NCBI RefSeq assembly: GCF_963921235.1
Contig: NC_086108.1
Location: 57,848,001 to 57,912,000, forward strand
Direction: 5' to 3'
Source: Mobula hypostoma
Taxonomy: Eukaryota
Length of the DNA stretch: 64,000 nt
The notes below the pieces were generated by a model. That model searched no databases. It saw only the letters and a list, made by a program, of their open reading frames with translations, and was not told the origin of the DNA. Shown here one piece after another: positions 3,150-57,984 of this stretch. The position numbers and the translations under genes were made by a program. Positions within the stretch are counted from its first letter, which is position 1. Every line of letters begins with the position of its first letter.

Positions 3150-4572
3150 CATAGAAAATAGGTGCAGGAGTAGGCCATTCAGCCCTTTGAGCCTGCACCG
3201 CCATCAGTATGATCATCGCTGATCATCCAACTCAGAACCCTGTACCAGCCTTCCCTCCATACCCCCGATCCCTCTAGCCACAAGGGCCATATCTAACTCC
3301 CTCTTAAATATAACCAATGAACTGGCCTCAACTGTTTCCTGTGGCAGAGAATTCCACAGATTCACCACTCTCTGTGTGAAGAAGTTTTTCCTAATCTCAG
3401 TCCTAAAAGGCTTCCCCCTTATCCTCAAACTGTGACCCCTCGTTCTGGACTTCCCCAACATCGGGAACAATCTTCCTGCATCTAGCCTGTCCAATACCTT
3501 TAGGATTTTATACGTTTCAATAAGATCCCCCCTCAATCTTCTAAATTCCAGAGAGTATAAGCCTAGTTGATCCAGTCTTTCATCATATGAAAGTCCTGCC
3601 ATCCCAGGAATCAATCTGGTGAACCTTCTTTGTACTCCCTCTATGGCAAGGATGTCTTTCCTCAGATTAGGGGACCAAAACTGCACACAGTACTCCAGGT
3701 GTGGTCTCACCAAGGCCTTGTGCAACTGCAGTAGTACCTCCCTGCTCCTGTACGCGAATCCTCTCGCTATAAATGCCAGCATACCATTCGCCTTTTTCAC
3801 CGCCTGCTGTACCTGCATGCCCACTTTCAATGACTGGTGTATAATGACACCCAGGTCTCATTGCACCTCCCCTTTTCCTAATCGGCCACCATTCAGATAA
3901 TAATCTGTTTTCCTGTTTTTGCCACCAAAGTGGATAACCTCACATTTATCCACATTAAATTGCATCTGCCATGAATTTGCCTACTCACCTAACCTATCCA
4001 AGTCACCCTGCATCCTCTGAGCATCCCCCTCACAGCTAACACTGCCGCCCAGCTTCGTGTCATCTGCAAACTTGGAGATGCTGCATTTAATTCCCTCATC
4101 TAAGTCATTAATATATATTGTAAACAACTGGGATCCCAGCGCTGAGCCTTGCGGTACCCCACTAGTCACTGCCTGCCATTCCGAAAAGGTCCCGTTTATT
4201 CCCACTCTTTGCTTCCTGTCTGCCAACCAATTCTCTATCCACATCAATACTATACCCCCAATACTGTGTGCTTTAAGTTTGCACACTAATCTCCTGTGTG
4301 GGACCTTGTCAAAAGCCTTTTGAAAATCCAAATATACCACATCCACTAGTTCTCCCCTATCCACTCTACTAGTTACATTCTCAAAAAATTATATGAGATT
4401 CGTCAGACATGATTTTCCTTTCACAAATCCATGCTGACTTTGTCTGATGATTTCACCACTTTCCAAATGTGCTGTTATCACATCTTTGATAACTGACTCT
4501 AGCATTTTCCCCACCACCGATGTTAGGCTAACCGGTCTATAATTCCCCGGTTTCTCTCTCCCTCCTTTTTTA
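3150..4572 (-). mobile_element. CR1 LINE, 5'-truncated, relatively young
   Basis: ORFs 3981-4364 and 3213-3830: [57 protein letters not shown]1 3' UTR at ~3150-3230. Confidence 0.95.
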
Positions 4573-47653: not shown

Positions 47654-50600
47654 ATATGATAATCCTTTCATTCCTGGAAACATCCTTGTGAACCTCCTCT
47701 GGACCCTCTCCAATGCCAGCACATCTTTTCTAAGATGAGGGGCCCAAAACTGTTCACAATACTCAAGGTGAGACTTCACCAGTGCCTTATAAAGCCTCAG
47801 CATCTCAGCTTGCTCTTCTATTCTAGACCTCTTGAAATGAATGCTAATATAGCATTTGCCTTCCTCACCACCGACTCAACCTGCAAGTTAACCTTTAGGG
47901 TGTTCTGCACAAGGACTCCCAAGTCCCTTTGCATCTCAGATTTTTGGATTTTTCTCCCCATTTAGAAAATAGTCTACACATTTATTTCTACCACAAAAGT
48001 GCATGAACATGCATTTTCCAGCATTGTATTTCATTTGCCACTTTCTTGCCCATTCTCCTAATCTGTATAAGTCCTTCTGCAGCCCACCTGTTTCCCCAAC
48101 ACTACCTGCCCCTCCAGCAATCTTTGTATCATCTGCTAATTTGACAATAAAGCCATCTATTCCATCATCTAAATCATTTATATACAGTATAAAAAGAAGT
48201 GGTCCCAACATTGACCCCTGCAGAACACCACTTATCACTGGCTACCAACCAGAAAAGGATCCTTTTATCCCCACTTGCTTCCTCCTACTAATCAGCCAAT
48301 GCTCTAACCATGTTAGTAACTTTACGGTAATAGCACAGGGTCTTAACTTGGTAAGCAGCCTCATCTGTGGTACCTTGTCAAAGGCCTTCTGAAAGTCCAA
48401 CTGTACAACATCCACTGCATCCCCTATATCTATCCTACTTCTAATCCCCTCAAAGAATTCCAGCAGGTTCATCAGGTGGGATTTCCCCTGAAGGAAGCCA
48501 TGCTGACTTTGTACTATCATGTCCTGTGTCACCAAGTACTCCATCACCTCATCCTTAACAATTGACTCTAACATCTTCCCAACCACTAAGGTCAGACTAA
48601 CTCATCTATAATTTCCTTTCTGCTGCCTTCCTCCTTTCTTAAAGAGTGGAGTGACATTCGCAATTTTCCAGTCCTCTGGCATCATGTCAGAGTCCAATGA
48701 TTTTTGAAAGATCATTTCTAATGCCACCTCTTTCAGAACCCTAGGGTGCAGTTCATCTGGTCCTGTTGACTTATGCACCTTTAGGTCTTTCAGCTTTTTG
48801 AGCATCTTCTCTCTAGTAATAGTAACTGCACCCACTTCTCTTCCTTCGCACACGACAACATCAGACATACAGCTAATGTCTTCCACAGTGAAATACTCAT
48901 TTAGTTCATCAGCAATCTCCTTGTCCCCAGTTATTATTTCTTCTGCCTCATTTTCTAGCAGTCTTATATCTACTCTCATTTCTCTTTTATTTTTAACATA
49001 CTTGAAAAAACTTTTACTATCCACTTGGATATTATTTGCTAGCTTGCTTTCATATTTCATCTTTTCCCTTCTAATGATTTTTAGTTGCTCTCTCTAGGTT
49101 TTTAAAAACTTCTTTGTCCTCTATCTTCCCACTAATTTTTGCTTTGTTGTCTGCCCTTTCTTTTGCTTTTACAATAGCTTTGACATCCCTTGTCAGCCAC
49201 GGTTGTACTATTTTACCTTTTGAGTATTTCTTCATTTTTGGAATACATATGTCCTGCACCTTCCTCATTTTTCCCTGAAACGCACACCATTGCTGCTCTG
49301 CTGACATCCCTGCCAGCAACTCCTTCCAATTTACTTGGCCAACTCCTCTCTCATACCATGGTAATTCCCCTGACTCCACTGAAATATTGCTACATCAGAT
49401 TTTACTTTCTCCCTATCACATTTCAAGTTGAACTTAGTCATATTGTGATCACTGGTTCCTAAGGTAAGCTCCCTAATCGCCTCTGGTTCATTACATAACA
49501 CCCAATCCAGTGTAGCTGATCCCCCAGTAGGCTCAACGACATACTGCTCAAAAAAGCCAACTCTTAAGCATTCCACAAACTCACTCTCTTGAGATCCATT
49601 ACCAACCTAATTTTCTCAAACGACCTACATGTTAAAATCTCCCATGATTACCATAATATTGCCCTTTTGACATGTCTTTTCTATTTCCTGTTGTCATCTG
49701 TGGTCCACCTCCCAGCCATTGTTGGGAGGCCTGTATATAACTGCCATCAGGGTCCTTTTACCCTTACAGTTTCTTAACTCAACCCACAAGGATTCAACAT
49801 CTTCTGATCCTATGTCACAGCTTTCTACTGATTTGATGCCATTCTTTACCAGTAGAGCCATGCCTCCCCCTCTGCCTACCTTCTTATCCCTCCAATATAA
49901 CATGTAACCTTGGACATTTAGATACAACACCTTGAGTACCATATTTGTTATCCTTTCTGATTCTGCATCCCTGATGATTTGATACTCAGCCTGTTGGCTG
50001 CAACTAAGTCCCATCACCTGCCTGCCCTCCCTGACAGTCTGACTACACACTATCTTTACTTTTTTACCATCCATCCTATCCTGAGTCCCTTCTCTCCTGC
50101 TCCCACCCCCCTGCCAAATTAGTTTAAACCCTCCCCAACAGCTCTAACAAACCTGCCCACAAGAATATTGGTCCTCCTCGGATTCAGGTACATCTCCTCA
50201 CTTTTGAACAGGTCATGCCTCCTCAGAAGCGATCGCAAAATGATCCAAAAACCTGAAGCCCTGCCCCCTGCACCAGCTTCTCAGCCATGCATTTATATAA
50301 CCATATAACAATTACAGCACGGAAACAGGCCATCTCGGCCCTTCTAGTCCGTGCCGAACTCTTACTCTCACCTCGTCCCACTGACCTGCACTCAGTCCAT
50401 AACCCTCCATTCCTTTCCTGTCTGTATATCTATCCAATTTAACTTTAAACGACAACATCAAACCTGCCTCAACCACTTCTGCTGGAAGCTTGTTCCACAC
50501 AGCTACCACTCTCTGAGTAAAAAAGTTCCCTCTCATGTTACCCCTAGATTTTTGTCCTTTAGCTCTCAACTCATGTCTTCTTGTTTGAATTTTCCCCACT

Positions 50601-51242
50601 CTCAATGGAAAAAGCCTATCCGCGTCAACTCTATCTATCCCCCTCATAATTTTAAACACCTCTATCAATTCCCCCCTCAACCTTCTACGCTCCAAAGAAT
50701 AAAGACCTAACTTGTTCAACCTTTCTCTGTAACTTAGGAGATGAAACCCAGGCAACATTTTAGTAAACCTCCTCTGTATTCCTCTGTACATCTTTCCTAT
50801 AATTTGGTAACCAGAACTGTACACAATACTCCAAATTTGGCCTTACCAATGCCTTGTACAATTTCAACATTACATCCTAACTCCTATACTCTATGCTCTG
50901 ATTAATAAAGGCCAGCATGCCAAAAGCTTTCTTCACCACCCTATCCACGTGAGATTCCACCTTCGGGGAACTATGCACCATTATTCCTAGATCCCTCTGT
51001 TCTACAGCATTCTTCAATGCCCTACCATTTACCATGTATGTCCTATTTTGATTAGTCCTACCAAAATGTGGTACCTCACATTTTTCAGCATTAAACTCCA
51101 TCTGCCATCTTTCAGCCCACTCTTCTAACTTTCCTAAATCTCCCTGCAAGCTTTGAAAACCTGCCTCATCTTAACATCTTAGTCCATGTGTATTTTGTAA
51201 CTCTTTTGTTCTGGACACCAGTGACTACCAGGAATAGTCTGG

Positions 51243-54200
51243 TTGGCAACCGGGAATAGTCCGGTGACAGCGTGGAGAGACAGCGGACAGCCAGGAAAGA
51301 CTGGCACCGGGGGTGTCAGGATTGGCAGTCCGGGCACCAGCTCAGAAGAGCACCCACCTCTTGAAGCTTCTAGTTTACATGGAGAAACATACGCTCAGGG
51401 TCTTCCGAGAGGGAGGGAGAATGATGGACCCAATCGGACGGATACAGTTAATTACAGGGAACGACTACGACCAAGAGCTAGGATAATAGGCTGTGAGTGT
51501 CCAGTGTGTTGGTGTGGGAGAGCATTTTTCAGCATTAAAGGTTTACGAGTCCACCAAGCAAAATTGAAGTGCTATTCCATCCCAGTGGATGAAGATGAGA
51601 TTTCTTCACCAAGCACAGATGATGTGGTCTTTTCAACCACTGATTCACAAGCCACAGCGATTCGCTCTGGAGAGTGTCATCATACTCCAGGTCAGACGAG
51701 AGATAACCCAAGTCAGGTTTCAGACCACAGTTCCCAGGTAGATTCCTCGCATGATGGTGGTGGTGAGGAGGTAGAGAAGAAGAGGAAGGTCAAGTGGCCA
51801 GCAATGGCAGATGAGAAGGTCTGGCGTGTAGTTGATGAGGATATCAGTATGATGTTGGAGAACACTCTCAGGGGAACATCAAAGAGAAAGTTGGAAGTGA
51901 TGGGCGATATGATTTACGACGTTGGAAAGTACAGGTTTAGTTTGGTTGTGTTGAAGAAAACAAAGCCTACACAGCAACCAAGCAGGTGCCAGAAGGAGAT
52001 TAGTAGGTTGAGGAGAGAGCTTAGATCGTTGAGACAGAGGTGGAAGGTAGCAAGTGAGGGTGACAAGCCAGGGCTTGCTGATCTCCGAGAGCATTTTCAA
52101 ATAAAGTTAGCATCACTCCGTCATACAGAGTCACAACATAAAAAGAGAAAGAAGAGAGAGAAGGCAAGAAAGTCATTCTTTGAGAACCCTCACGAGTTCA
52201 CAAAGAAACTGTTTGAACGAAGCAAGAGCGGGCAGCTTAACATCTCCCAACAAGAACTTGAGGATCACCTAGCAAGCACTTACTCTAACAAACAGCAGGA
52301 GGCTCCTTTGCTTGACATTTCAGGGCTTGTGAAGCCTACCAAGCCAGGAGTGAAGTTCGATCTGTCAGAACCCAAACTGGCAGAAGTTGAACGGTTCATC
52401 AGAAAGGCAAGGTCAGGCTCAGTGCCAGGACCTAATGGAGTTCTGTATAAGGTGTTCAAGAAGTGTGAGGAGCTGAGGAAATACTTGTGGAGATTGTTAA
52501 AGGTGGTGTGGAGACAAGGTGTTGTTCCTTTGTCATGGAGTGAGGCTGAAGGAGTATACATCCCGAAGGAAGAGAATTCTTCTACATTGAATCAGTTCCG
52601 ACCAATTTTACTCCTGAATGTAGAGGGGAAGATTATGTTTGACATTCTGGCAGAAAGAATATCTTTATTTGTGATTGAGAATGGATTAGTAAATACATCT
52701 GTGCAGAAGGCAGGAATACCAGGCTTCCCAGGATGCTTTAAACATTCTAGTATGAAATGACATACTGCCCAGGAGTCAAAAAGGTTGAGAAGAAATCTGG
52801 CTGTAGTTTGGCTTGATCTGGCAAATGCATATGGCTCTGTTCCCCATGTCCTGATTGAGTTTGCGATGGAATTCCTATGGATTCCTGCTAAGGTGAGGAA
52901 CTTTGCTATGCAGTACTACAACGATTTCCGGATGAGGTTTTCCACTCAGCAGTTTACAACTAGGTGACAGAGCTCGGATGTTGGAATCCCAATGGGATGC
53001 GCAATTTCACGCATCCTTTTTGTGTTAGCCATGGAGGTTATTGTGAGGGCTGCAGAATCAGTGGGACCAGGTGTCGCACTTGATGGCGGAGAGGAGTTAC
53101 CACCAATACGAGCGTTCATGGATGATTTTACCCTTTTGGGTCCCAGCACGGAGGCAGTGGAAATGTACTATTTAGACTCGAGGAGCTAATGGATTGGGGA
53201 AGAATGAAGTTCAAGACCAAGAAGTCAAGGAGCCTTGTTATTAGGAGAGGAAAGCTGGTTGACTTTCATTTCACCCTTTGTGGAAAGGAGATTCCATACA
53301 TTCAGGACCAATCAGTTAAGAGCCTCGGGCGATGGTACACAGAGGAGCTGAGAGACACCAAGAGGGTTCAAGAGACAGGAGAACAGATCAACGGAGGTCT
53401 GATGTCTGTTGACAAGTGTGGCTTGCCTGGCAAGTTGAAGTTGTGGTGCTTGCAGTACGGACTGATGCCACGGATAATGTGGCCACTAACTGTCCATGAA
53501 GTGGCAATATCCCATGTTGAGGCAATGGAACGGAAGATCAACAAGTATGTGAAGAAGTGGCTTGGAGTACCAAGCAGCCTCACCAACGTTGCAATCCACA
53601 GTAGCCAGACAAAGCTTACCATCCCAGTGCAATCCCTTGTTGAAGAGGTCAAGGTAGCCAAGGTAAGATCATTCTTGATGCTTCGAGACTCAAAAGACCC
53701 GGTCATCAAGAACACCCAGCCGGATGTGAGATCAGGCAGGAAGTGGTCAGCCCATGTAGCAGTTGATGAGGCAGAGTCTAGATTGAAGCACAAGGAGACG
53801 GTTGGGGCTATCCAGCTAGGCAGCCAGGGACTTGGATGGACAACCCACAAGTGGTCGATATCTTCTACAGGTAAGGAGCGCCGTGAGCTTGTAACACAAG
53901 AAATACGAGAGGTAGAAGAGGAGAAGAGGTTAACTGAAACAGCTGGTCTGGCCAAACAAGGGACTTGGACCCAGTGGGAAAGTATTGAACAACGACACCT
54001 ATCTTGGAATGTTCTGTGGCAGATGGAACTGCTCCACATTTCTTTTCTATGCAGAGCAGCATACGATCTGCTCCCAACACCTGCCAACCTCAGCACCTGA
54101 TATGAAGATAAGACAGACAGGTGTGCTGCTTGTGGCGAGAAGGGAACACTTCAACATATCTTGAGTGCATGCAGAGTCAATCTTTCCAGCGGCACTTACA

Positions 54201-54781
54201 TTTGGAGACATAACAACGTTCTCAAAGTTGTAACAGAAGCGGTGGAGCAGAGAGTACTGCAGCACAACTTATCTCATGCCCCATGCTGCACAGAACATCG
54301 CATATCATTTGTGAAAGAAGACTCCAAGTCAAGGGTGTACAGTATAGGCTCACAATCAAGCATACTTTCTCCAGCCAATGATTGGTGTGTCAAGGCCGAC
54401 CTGGATGGGAAAGGCAGTTTCCTGGAGCAAATAGCTTTCACAACATTGCGTCCAGATATAATCGTATGGTGTGATACCAGTAGAGAAGCGGTTATTGGTG
54501 AACTCACAGTCCCCTGGGAAGACAACATCGATGAAGCCCATGAGCGCAAGTTAACCAAATATGCAGAGTTGAGATCAGAGTGCAGAGACAGAGGGTGGAA
54601 GGTCTCATGCTATCCATTCGAAGTAGGCTGCTGTGGGTTTATTGCGTTCACTCTCCAGGAGTGGCTGCGTGACCTTGGCTTCACTAGAAGAGAGATCAAG
54701 TCAACCAGCAGGGCTGTAGCTGAGGCAGCAGAGAAAGGGTCAGCGTGGGTGTGGACCAAGTATGTCCAGAGGGGCAGATAG
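51243..54781 (+). pseudogene. Hero-like polyprotein (~1180 codons) with three TGA stops (52758, 52965, 54098) and one frameshift (~53162); true start uncertain
   Basis: CWCGR...GLRVHQAKLKC finger; PGPNG, IPK, FRPI.LLN.EGK, DLANAYGSVPH, GIPMGC..S..LF, AFMDD; C..CGEKGTLQHILSAC, RHNNVL, RPDIIV, ELTVPWE, ERK..KY. Confidence 0.9.
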
Positions 54782-54903
54782 TCAGACAGTGTATACATAT
54801 CTTGCAAACCCTTCAGTAGTTGCACAGACCCCTGAAGAGTAGACTATCTGTTGGATGGAAGTGACCAATAACTCTGATAGAGGCAGATGCCAAATTTTTA
54901 AGC

Positions 54904-55022
54904 TCACCAGTGGGAGGTGGTGCTTTAGCACTGCTGGCCCACCACCTCGAGGGAGTCTTGATCATAAGCGGGCCGAAACTCCTGAAGACAGGTGGCAGAT
55001 CAACTGATGATCCCACTGGTGA
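54904..55022 (+). ncRNA. Structured 3' UTR RNA: hammerhead-core motif with non-canonical pseudoknotted topology, four-way junction and kink-turn
   Basis: GTC 54955-57, GAAA 54975-78, CTGATGA 55004-10; stem I 54958-63/54998-55003; stem III 54951-56/54978-83; helices 54904-15/55011-22, 54916-23/54928-35, 54936-40/54970-74, 54942-47/54990-95. Confidence 0.7.
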
Positions 55023-57984
55023 TAGCACAGGACAGTTAACATCTTAGTCCATGTGTATTTTGTAACTCAAATCAGCCACAACACCAGCTATCTTAATGTC
55101 ATCTGCATACTTACTAATCCAATTTACCACCCCATCATCCAGATCATTAATATATATATATGACAAACAACATTGGACTCAGTACAGATCCCTGAGGCAC
55201 ACCGCTACACACCATCTTCCAATCTGACACACAGATATCCACCTCTACTCTCTGGCGTCTCCCATCTAGCCACTGCTGAATCCATTTTACTACTTCCATA
55301 TTAATGCCTATCGATTGAACCTTCCTAACTAACTTTCCGTGTGGAACCCTGTCAAAGGCCTTACTGAAGTCCATATAGACAACATCCACCGCTTTACCCT
55401 CGTCAACTTTCCTAGTAACCTCATCAAAAAATTCAGTAAGATTTGTCAAACATGACCTTCCACAGACAAATCCATGTTGACTGTTCCTAATCAGACTCTG
55501 TCTATCCAGATAATTATATATACCATCTCTAAGAATACTTTTCATCAATTTACCCACCACTGACATCAAACTCATAGGCCAATAATTGCCAGGTTTACTC
55601 TTAGAACCCTTTTTAAACAATGGAATCGCATGAGCAATACGCCAATCCTCCGGCACCATTCCTGTTTCTAATATTTCTGTCAGAGCCCCTGCTATTTCTA
55701 CACCAACTTCCCACAAGGTCCTAGGGAATATCTTGTCCGGACCTGGAGACTTATCCACTCTTATATTCCTTAAAAGCGCTAGTACTTCCTCTTCTTTAAT
55801 TGTCATACTTTCCATAACTACCCTTCTTGTTTCCTTTACCTTACACAATTCAATATCCTTTTCCTTAGTGAATACCGAAGAAAAGAAATTGTTCAAAATC
55901 TCCCCCATCTCTTTTGGCTCTGCACATAGCCCTCCACTCTGATCCTCCAAGGGACCAATTTTATCCCTCACTATCCTTTTGCCACTGACATAACTGTAGA
56001 AACCCTTTGGATTTATTTTCACCTTACTTGCCAAAGCAGCCTCGTATCTTCTTTTAGCCTTTCTAATTTCTTTCTTAAGATTCTTTTTACATTCTTTATA
56101 TTCCTGGAGTACCTCATTAACTCCAAGCTGCCTATATTTATTGAAGATCCCTCTCTTTTTCCGAACCAAGTTTCCAATATCCCTTGAAAACCATGGCTCT
56201 CTCAAACTTTTAACCTTTCCTTTCAATCTAACAGGAACATAAAGATTCTGAACCCTCAAAATTTCAAAATTATCTGCCAAATCGTCCTGTTTCTACCCTC
56301 ACTAGGGCGTGGCACAGGAAGCAATCCAGAAATTACTACCTGGGAGGTCTTGCTTCTCTGCTTTCTACCTAGCTCTCTAAATTCTCTCTTCAGGACCTCT
56401 TTGCTTTTCCTTCCTATATCATTGGTACCAATATGTACCAAGACATCTGGCTGCTTTCCCTTCCTCTCCAAAATGTTGTGGACGTGATCTGAGACGTCCC
56501 TGACCCTGGCACCTGGGAGGCAACATACCATCCGGGTGTCCCGTTCACATCTACAGAATCTCCTGTCTGTTCCTCTCACTACTGAGTCCCCTATCACTAC
56601 TGCTTCCTTCTTTCTCTTTCTAAACTCTTCAAATGAATTGAAAGAAGAGGTTCCCCATTTCATTGAAAACTTAGATAAAGGATGAGTTGCAGTAATTCCA
56701 TGTCTGAGGTGAGCAGCTGAACGCTCACTGAATCTATAAATGGGTGTTCACTATAATGTCAGCAATTGCACTGCTCTGACATCCATTTGCTTCGATTGAT
56801 GCCCTACGTTACAAGTTTTACTCTGTTCTTATCTATGTATATCTTTGAAAGCTTAACCTAGTAGCATGTACTCCCTCAATTCCAGAAAACTCACTGCAGA
56901 TATTTTCTAGCTCCATCTCCTTTAACAATGAGATTGCCGTGGTCCTTTTGGATTTTGTAGATAGTGAGCAAAACGTTGATCTTTAGTTTTGAAGAGATGC
57001 TGTACATAAAAATTAAAGGTCACAGTCAAAGACTAATACAATACAATACTCATCATTGCACAGCCTCCTCCATCACCTCAGATGAATGCAAATGGTTAAA
57101 AGTAAATCAAACGAAAAATTTTGATTAATAGACAGCTCAGACTGCTAAAGTTAGAGGAAGCATATTGATTAAATAATCGTATTAATGCAACCCTTTTGTT
57201 TCCTCTTAGTGACAACTTCTCAACTTAGTTTGCTGGCCCTACTACTACCACACACTGTCCCATTTCCCCTTCAGCTGTAATCAGGCTAATGAGAGGCTGC
57301 TCTCTTTCAGTGTGGTTGAGTAAAGATGACCATGATGGATAACTACGATCAGCCCTGGATCTATAAGGGCCAGCTGGTGATTATAGCAACACTAGCTAAT
57401 GGGTGGGGAAGATTGTTTGGCAACCTAGGCTCGTGAGCTGAGGGATGTATTTAAGGTCATTCCCTATGAAAGTACAGATGCTGACATTTTTTAGAGGGGA
57501 TAAGAATTTTCTATCTCCACCATGCCACTGGGACTAGTCAAACTCTGGATGTATCCAATGTGACCTAGTTCATATGAATATTGTCTATGTCTCCAGACAT
57601 TACATTACAGACAATAAACATCCGCATGACAGTAATGTTCCCTTTAATGGTAAGTGTGCCTCTGGAATCATCTGTCTGATTAACAGTCTGCACAGTTCCA
57701 TTTGGAGTAACCAGATGCCCAGGGTGGAAATGTTGAATACTAAAGGACACAGCTTAAAATGAGAGGGGGAGTGTTTAAACAGATTTACAAGGCAAGCATT
57801 TTTAACAGAGTGGTAGGTGTCAGGAACACAATACCAGGACAAATGGTTGAGCTGATGCATGGACCAGTTCTTGTGCTGTACTGTTCTATGTGCTATGAGG
57901 CACAAGGATTTTGGTAGTGTCTCATAGAAAGAGAAACTTGCTTTGTTAAGATAGGGGGGTCACTATCATGCTGCTGATTATTCC

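Follow-up and report, generated by a model that had tools for sequence, protein, structure and literature searches.

A probable hammerhead ribozyme with a permuted and split core in the 3' untranslated region of Hero-like retrotransposons

A hammerhead motif downstream of a retrotransposon coding region

The stretch of DNA analysed here (hereafter the window) comprises 64,000 nucleotides of the genome of Mobula hypostoma (assembly GCF_963921235.1, contig NC_086108.1, positions 57,848,001 to 57,912,000 of the forward strand) and contains, in the 3' untranslated region (UTR) of a Hero-like retrotransposon, all the nucleotides of a hammerhead core in an unusual strand order. The question raised by this locus is whether these nucleotides belong to a catalytic RNA and what such an RNA could do for its element. 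The pattern of conservation in distant relatives makes it probable that the motif is a genuine, selected hammerhead, encoded on the sense strand of the 3' UTR of Hero-like retrotransposons and cleaving itself after C54957.

Indeed, GTC (54955-57), GAAA (54975-78) and CTGATGA (55004-10) are read directly from the window sequence, and all the motif elements listed in an initial annotation of this stretch were found at their coordinates, base for base. The core strands occur, as had been proposed, in the order [III-GUC-I], [GAAA-III], [I-CUGAUGA]. In the block notation of Eckert, Friedrich, Weinberg & Weinberg (Nucleic Acids Research 2023; PMC10085705) this is the order S-G-C, a non-circular permutation that needs pseudoknots. 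The core, the closing helix P1, the hairpin P2 and a 5-bp helix (54936-40/54970-74) follow one another with zero unpaired linkers and form a perfect four-way junction, which also carries the 5' and 3' ends of the motif (coordinates of all parts are given in Table 1). This junction had been described as a replacement for stem II; the junction itself stands, but the accompanying statement that there is no simple stem II does not, since stem II is present in the form of the 5-bp helix, which has the canonical G10.1-C11.1 pair, and the junction replaces only the backbone link from A9 to 10.1. The stem II strand usually found 3' of CUGANGA precedes the cleavage block instead, and the P1 and P2 junction fills the gap that this leaves between A9 and G10.1. 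The helices described initially were incomplete: a covarying helix, P4 (54942-47/54990-95), which links stem III to the distal ends of stems I and II, and a kink-turn-like loop had been missed. P1, P2 and stem II are all present in the minimum free energy fold of 54895-55030 (-53.5 kcal/mol, z = -3.1), and none of 200 shuffled sequences was equally stable.

Recurrence of the motif in relatives

Metagenome contigs were scanned with a protein alignment, which yielded 79 loci whose endonuclease domain is 33-46% identical to that of the window element. CUGANGA is present within ~250 nt 3' of the stop codon in most loci with enough sequence. A descriptor was written that demands CUGANGA, GAAA 15-50 nt upstream of it, U16.1, at least five of six pairs in stem III and at least four of six pairs in stem I. 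It parsed 50 of 77 3' UTRs (76 loci with a stop codon and the window) and 41 of the 55 UTRs of at least 250 nt, against none of 77 reverse complements and 0.0 matches per set in 20 shuffled sets. Applied to the whole loci, it placed the motif on the sense strand, 3' of the open reading frame (ORF), in 54 of the 79, once in 53 of them and twice in L060, with 0 matches on the minus strands (254,164 nt). The other 25 loci lack the motif mostly because they are cut short. In five unparsed loci the first CUGANGA-like heptamers listed show single core-motif changes, namely G12 to A (AAAA for GAAA) in L076 and L083, C3 to U (TTGAAGA) in L036 and L039, and A6 to U (CTGTTGA) in L101, as is expected of decaying copies. 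On both strands of the window, the descriptor returned the true site and one minus-strand match at ~4406-4477, which lies inside a reverse transcriptase (RT) coding region, has a 48-nt spacing and was set aside as a chance match.

Furthermore, a second and far more numerous Hero family is present in the same genome (13,097 candidates, 58-61% identity to a characid fish protein tail), and the one copy of it that was fetched (L171) has the same ribozyme layout, with the P2 loop CUGAUCA. The motif of this copy is nearly identical to those of the metagenomic loci L048 and L066. The suggestion in the initial annotation that this layout is shared, made there for fish Hero 3' ends, is borne out by the 54 loci and by this second family. 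Because the same design recurs in distant relatives, the motif is almost certainly a working RNA part of the life cycle of the element.

Core conservation and covariation

Per-position counts were made on 48 distinct rows of relatives. The parser demanded the fixed core bases, whose evidence is the match rate (50 of 77, and 0 in the controls), and the remaining positions behave as follows: (i) position 17 is C in 19 rows, A in 15, U in 14 and G in none, (ii) position 7 is U in 27 rows, C in 13, A in 5 and G in 3, (iii) G occupies position 10.1 in 46 of the 48 rows, and position 11.1 has C in 43 rows and U in the other 5, (iv) the 15.2-16.2 pair is C-G in 43 rows and U-A in 4. Judging from these counts, the free positions are exactly those that are free in hammerheads, and the sole base excluded at position 17, G, is one that inactivates hammerheads. 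The combination of kept catalytic bases, a free N7 and an excluded G17 reads, in an alignment, as the signature of catalysis.

Covariation was assessed on a MAFFT alignment of 51 parsed rows, made with no structure fitted, onto which the four crossing helices were carried from the window row. In this alignment 84.4% of the cells are paired, versus 57.6% after shuffling, and the covariation score is 0.615 versus 0.183 (reached in 0 of 500 shuffles), falling to 0.08-0.22 when the partners are slid by 1-3 columns. Both sides vary in 21 of the 23 pairs (15 of 17 in stems I, II and III taken together, six of six in P4), and the paired cells amount to 81% in stem II, 74% in P4, 90% in stem III and 90% in stem I; the rows were chosen by a parser requiring the core and stems I and III, so these two stems pair in part by construction, and it is the parse rate, compared with the controls, that supports them. 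P4 had no part in the choice of rows. RNAalifold, which can select one crossing set at most, picked stem I unaided, with six of six pairs compensated. Helices I, II and III thus abut the core in register and are kept by compensatory change, and the covariation and core invariance that had been called for among homologues are both present.

Junction, P4 and kink-turn-like loop

The conserved order of parts is P1a, P2 hairpin, IIa, P4a, (N)GA, IIIa-U16.1, H17 and Ia in the first half, and linker, IIb, GAAA, IIIb, NNN-GA-(N), P4b, Ib, CUGANGA and P1b in the second. P1 has at least 7 bp directly after A9 in 31 of 46 relatives, versus 11% of shuffles, and P2 is a hairpin flush with both of its neighbours in 29 of 32, which together indicate that the perfect four-way junction is conserved. 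The closest metagenomic relatives (L031-L035, 44-46%) form a lineage in which a G that can pair with C11.1 directly follows A9, so that their junction seems to be shifted by one base pair; in the same lineage stem III enters P4 with no 3'-strand bases and with a 7-nt bulge on the 5' strand.

The loop between stem III and P4 follows the strict kink-turn consensus, in which one strand has GA directly adjoining stem III and the other a bulge of three bases followed by GA, in 29 of the 48 rows, and eight more carry RA variants. The window loop fits the kink-turn sequence pattern of C helix, 3-nt bulge, tandem G.A/A.G and NC helix. With such a geometry, P4 would be turned back by the loop to run alongside stem III in the direction of stems I and II.

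A competing helix, 54914-22/54940-48, had been feared. It is a perfect 9-bp pairing in the window family, where it competes with P2 and P4, the latter using the same bases, and it shrinks to 2-7 bp (mostly 4-5) in 34 other rows. It was rejected as a conserved feature; in the window family it might serve as an off-state of the ribozyme peculiar to this lineage, or have arisen by chance.

Comparison with known ribozymes and elements

Natural non-circular permutations of the hammerhead were described by Eckert et al. as type SGC, type CSG and one GCS. Type SGC (HRIMA-1 and variants) was found in metatranscriptomes near hairpin ribozymes, with variants from metagenomes, and its RNAs cleave at the predicted site at 0.007-0.19 per min in vitro, a core mutation abolishing the activity (PMC10085705). 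The opposite cyclic order, which the initial annotation had regarded as a new architecture, is therefore already known and catalytically competent.

The Hero motif and type SGC are alike in (i) the order from cleavage site to GAAA to CUGANGA, with a pseudoknotted core and the core bases kept, (ii) a short linker between stems I and II (~3 nt in type SGC) and a helix joining the other sides of these two stems, which corresponds to P4, and (iii) the connection of stem III to this bridging helix. Whereas CUGANGA runs straight into stem II in type SGC, it runs in Hero into the 12-bp P1, the four-way junction and the extra hairpin; the stem II strand of the Hero motif, 54936-40, lies upstream of block S, an interruption that the definition of type SGC does not admit; and, unlike in type SGC, both strands of stem III enter P4 through the kink-turn-like loop. 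In formal terms, type SGC is circularly permuted in Hero: the ends lie in a helix, P1, inserted between A9 and 10.1, and the connection between P4 and stem III is closed. What is new is the split C block with its perfect P1/P2 four-way junction, the kink-turn-like link and the host, an autonomous retrotransposon with a restriction-like endonuclease (RLE).

Blocks were assumed by Eckert et al. to be uninterruptible, and their patterns would miss the Hero RNA because its block C is split between A9 and 10.1. The prediction that standard descriptors would miss the motif held equally for Rfam, whose nested hammerhead models cannot describe a non-nested strand order. If the Hero motif is a ribozyme, even a hammerhead block can be split by a helical junction, and descriptor searches that assume intact blocks miss natural ribozymes for this reason. 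The motif would also carry the non-circular permutations from anonymous metatranscriptome RNAs into animal genomes and extend them to a whole clade of autonomous retrotransposons with thousands of copies. Eckert et al. found it hard to square the crystal structure with a bridging helix directly connected to stem III (PMC10085705), and the kink-turn-like loop between these two helices offers a concrete, testable answer to this geometric puzzle of type SGC. The loop resembles Kt-7 type kink-turns in its three-base bulge and in the tandem G.A/A.G between the helices, stem III taking the place of the C helix and P4 that of the NC helix; the likeness is one of sequence pattern, and 11 of 48 relatives use other bulges and three have AA for GA.

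No link of type-SGC RNAs to retrotransposons is made in the accessible parts of the text and supplement of PMC10085705. The initial annotation knew of no hammerhead described in Hero 3' UTRs, and a literature search, with subscription-only papers and Repbase notes outside its range, likewise found nothing linking hammerheads to Hero; the accessible portions of PMC13580325, PMC13725137 and a 2026 preprint contain no mention of hammerheads in Hero.

Two other systems are comparable in part. In Penelope-like elements and retrozymes (Cervera & de la Pena 2014, 2020) a hammerhead likewise lies in the head-to-tail repeated part, on both sides of the unit, and its proposed role is the processing to unit length and, for retrozymes, the formation of circles. 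The hammerheads of these elements are classical type I or minimal, whereas the Hero ribozyme is permuted. Penelope-like elements combine a telomerase-like RT with a GIY-YIG nuclease, whereas Hero-like elements have a CCHC knuckle, a PD..E..K nuclease and a long ORF; the unit between the hammerheads of retrozymes is non-coding, whereas the Hero-like unit encodes this long ORF. The Hero-like element falls outside both groups and has the head-to-tail layout alone in common with them. The R2-type ribozyme (Eickbush; Ruminski et al. 2011), which resembles that of the hepatitis delta virus (HDV) and occurs in R2 and further elements without long terminal repeats (non-LTR retrotransposons), is also a self-cleaving RNA of an RLE-type element, and can free the RNA from an upstream co-transcript. 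It belongs to another class and is confined to the 5' end, whereas Hero encodes its ribozyme in the 3' UTR, and only the head-to-tail arrangement brings it to the 5' side.

Host element

The name Hero is provisional and follows the initial annotation. The ORF of the window copy is split into three pieces, so this copy is not intact, and a Pfam search with the three pieces gave no domain match, for which reason the domain make-up is read from homologues. A CCHC knuckle and a PD..E..K restriction-like endonuclease were recognised in the C-terminal part by protein alignment, with C8, C11, H19, C24, R117, P118, D119, E134 and K150 invariant in the alignment of the endonuclease region. Proteins homologous to the last 226 residues come from lancelets, a sea urchin, fishes and bivalves; they are RTs and carry PF00078 and PF13966. 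These sequence features fit an RLE-type non-LTR retrotransposon, with an RT and a restriction-like endonuclease. The hammerhead motif lies on the sense strand, 3' of the ORF region ending at 54781, in agreement with its initial placement in the 3' UTR of a Hero-like element.

The window family is young and abundant: 1705 candidate copies were counted in a first scan of the 3.48-Gb genome, the best 40 being 97-100% identical. The element ends at 55068 (...GTAACTC), beyond which the flanks of the copies are unrelated, and C54957 lies 111 nt inside this end, so the predicted cleavage site is, as had been noted, well within the 3' end. The terminal TAACTC-like hexamer is repeated once more past 55068 in some copies (L011, L012 and L018), a sign that slippage or microhomology may accompany the initiation of reverse transcription.

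Table 1. Coordinates of the Hero-like element and of the parts of its hammerhead motif in the window.
Feature	Position	Strand	Remark
Partial copy of the element's own 3' tail, upstream	51171..51203	+	33 nt, identical to 55036-55068; junction 51203|51204
5' UTR with hairpins	51204..51420	+	Conserved at the nucleotide level in distant Hero-like loci
Retrotransposon ORF region	51225..54781	+	Three open pieces: 51225-52760, 53126-54100, 54101-54781
P1, 5' strand	54904..54915	+	12 bp with 55011-55022; closes the whole ribozyme
P2 hairpin	54916..54935	+	8 bp, three G.U, loop UUUA; flush with P1 and stem II
Stem II, 5' strand	54936..54940	+	G10.1 = 54936; 5 bp with 54970-54974
P4, 5' strand (CCACCT)	54942..54947	+	Pairs with AGGTGG 54990-54995
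Kink-turn-like loop, non-bulged strand	54948..54950	+	C, then G2n A1n; three-dimensional fold inferred
Stem III, 5' strand (GGGAGT)	54951..54956	+	Last base U16.1 (54956); pairs with 54978-83, one G.U
C17	54957	+	Cleavage predicted at 54957/54958 by analogy with the hammerhead
Stem I, 5' strand (TTGATC)	54958..54963	+	Pairs with GATCAA 54998-55003
Linker from stem I to stem II	54964..54969	+	0-7 nt in relatives, mostly 3-5
Stem II, 3' strand	54970..54974	+	C11.1 = 54974
G12 A13 A14, then stem III 3' strand (ACTCCT)	54975..54983	+	Stem III strand 54978-83; A15.1 = 54978
Kink-turn-like loop, bulged strand	54984..54989	+	GAA bulge, G1b A2b, C
P4, 3' strand (AGGTGG)	54990..54995	+	
Stem I, 3' strand (GATCAA)	54998..55003	+	
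Core C3 U4 G5 A6 U7 G8 A9	55004..55010	+	
P1, 3' strand	55011..55022	+	
3' tail to the element end (...GTAACTC)	55023..55068	+	Flanks differ between copies beyond 55068

Head-to-tail insertions

The window copy is preceded by a piece of its own 3' tail (Table 1), and the generality of this arrangement was assessed on 30 other genomic copies, chosen only for carrying the 5' region 51204-51330. In every one of the 30, 13-1690 nt of 3'-end sequence precede the unit, joined exactly at 55068|51204, and none starts at 51204; in 15 of them the whole ribozyme is inside the upstream partial 3' end. In the 25 copies that gave a separate 3'-end match, the upstream lengths have no preferred value. Full tandem dimers were not found among these copies, the longest upstream copy (L153/L170) starting at 53379, which makes a 1.4-mer. 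Full-length Hero insertions have the head-to-tail, '1.x-mer' form known from Penelope-like elements, and since every copy carries an upstream 3' end, the template RNA always spans the 55068|51204 joint. A transcript of such a tandem insertion carries two ribozymes, one ahead of the 5' UTR and one within the 3' UTR. A self-cleaving motif would here be paired with obligatory head-to-tail insertion in an RLE-type element, the same pairing as in Penelope-like elements, which makes the formation of RNA ends and the use of circular templates by such elements directly testable.

Similar arrangements are visible in the metagenomic loci. Indeed, L060 has two ribozymes 3643 nt apart, whose identity stops ~37 nt after A9. 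Among the metagenomic ribozyme copies, 34 have 250 nt or more of downstream sequence, and in 10 of these a homologue of the 5' UTR of the window element follows within ~35-70 nt.

Proposed function and alternative explanations

The most likely role of the hammerhead, though a tentative one, would be to trim longer-than-unit or read-through transcripts. The RNA would cut itself after C54957, upon which every helix but P2 and stem I would become intermolecular, and the resulting clamp of 29 bp (12 + 5 + 6 + 6 in P1, stem II, P4 and stem III) would keep the two halves together and favour re-ligation. Tandem transcripts would supply a ribozyme upstream of the 5' UTR and one in the 3' UTR; trimming to unit length would set the 5' end in the manner of the R2 5' ribozyme, and the ends of a unit-length RNA cut at both copies would reassemble one ribozyme and possibly close a circle. 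The resulting RNA would be the template for target-primed reverse transcription from 55068, and reverse transcription from this position on a circular or multimeric template would give the observed insertion structure.

It is somewhat unlikely, though worth stating, that Hero elements are autonomous protein-coding retrotransposons replicating via a ribozyme-made, unit-length circular RNA. The permuted hammerhead would then cut at two copies, hold the ends in its active site by 29 bp and re-ligate them, and the RT would initiate at the internal position 55068 and copy its way around the circle. Such a circle would explain the 1.x-mers with their exact 55068|51204 joint, their random 5' ends and the lack of a truncation hot spot at the cleavage site. 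If true, this would be the first element resembling long interspersed nuclear elements (LINE-like) with a viroid- or retrozyme-style intermediate.

Several observations weigh against a self-cleaving hammerhead. With regard to the genomic footprint, a separate set of 30 copies picked by their last 79 nt revealed no truncation hot spot at the cleavage site (19 of the 30 are 5'-truncated within 1.5 kb, at scattered positions), only L132 of 30 copies starts at 54959, and of the 30 upstream partial copies described above none starts at 54958 and 15 read through the ribozyme. In the absence of a hot spot, the templates that are copied must be mostly intact or re-ligated at the site. The 23 public sequencing runs all consist of assembled contigs, of guessed RNA status in 22 of them, and the four examined, which cannot show cleavage, have no pile-up of starts or ends; a contig joint skipping 54918-54970 (depth 4.8, one run) was set aside. 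With regard to function, a ribozyme in the 3' UTR would also sever the 111 nt needed for the start of reverse transcription, unless it is slow, reversible or checked by protein. With regard to structure, the assumption of Eckert et al. that block C is uninterrupted is broken here, the pairing of stems I and III is partly built into the choice of rows, and 11 of 48 rows have other bulges in place of the kink-turn consensus. Finally, Rfam 15 gave no family at the gathering score for the window and none at E<=10 for 54600-55300, and lends no independent support either; its sole match, to a long non-coding RNA on the minus strand, was dismissed as chance.

Among the alternatives, a purely structural RNA fares best, although it is unlikely: the hammerhead-shaped, pseudoknotted fold would be a recognition handle for the RT that positions the template at 55068, with cleavage absent or irrelevant in cells. 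The R2 protein binds the pseudoknotted R2 3' UTR, the motif is 46 nt from the required start of reverse transcription, and the lack of a truncation hot spot, with an RT that reads through the motif, agrees with a handle. RLE-type elements are known to use structured 3' UTRs (PMC12222951). A protein handle needs neither all the catalytic bases, nor a free N7, nor the exclusion of G only at position 17, and RNAs of the same topology do cleave (PMC10085705); the two roles are, moreover, compatible.

A lower probability still, and a small one, attaches to a ribozyme that acts between molecules or between tandem copies of one transcript and not as a single-chain pseudoknot. The small hammerheads of Penelope-like elements reportedly cleave as dimers, and two copies per transcript are common in Hero. 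The P2 loops of relatives are often palindromic, with UGAUCA in 12 of 32 and UGGCCA in 5 of 32 (e.g. L048, L060, L054 and L064). Self-complementarity survives the switch between these two, a hint of kissing contacts between the loops of two RNAs or of two tandem copies. The P2 loop of the window family, UUUA, is no palindrome, and all the helices can form in one chain, with helices of 5-7 bp and linkers like those of the validated single-chain type SGC (PMC10085705).

It is extremely improbable that short motifs came together by chance in a structured, GC-rich UTR: one false positive of the loose descriptor in 128 kb (both window strands) and a 12-bp inverted repeat that by our own estimate is not rare in 64 kb could be cited for this reading, but it is refuted by the recurrence of the motif at this position in 54 of 79 distant relatives, by covariation in four helices and by its absence from shuffles, reverse complements and 254 kb of minus strand.

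Other features of the element and its surroundings

The 5' UTR of the window element is a run of hairpins with GAAUAGU- or GAAAGA-type loops, and it has 72-84% nucleotide identity to at least 17 metagenomic Hero-like loci whose endonuclease domains are only 33-46% identical; its counterparts include L060:116-330, L051:100-193 and L062:2818-2912. At the sequence level it looks like a second conserved RNA module, perhaps for protein binding or the start of translation.

Internally deleted derivatives of the element are found in its own genome (L146, L158, L159, L165, L113 and L121). In them the first 700-900 nt of the unit (to ~51911-52103) are fused directly with its last 130-570 nt (from 54501-54937). 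The 5' UTR is retained, as is the ribozyme in whole or for the most part, and these derivatives may be non-autonomous riders.

In runs X1 and X2, the summed contig depth rises ~20-fold over the last ~85 nt (54974-55058), with loose ends 'before' 54979 and half of the depth having C at 55022 and 55023. This rise is probably due to another, more abundant repeat, perhaps non-autonomous, with the Hero 3' tail and without the cleavage block.

Finally, minus-strand fragments of RT ORFs that belong to other non-LTR elements flank the Hero copy on both sides (48602-51170 and 55147-56292), and the region is a nest of retrotransposons.

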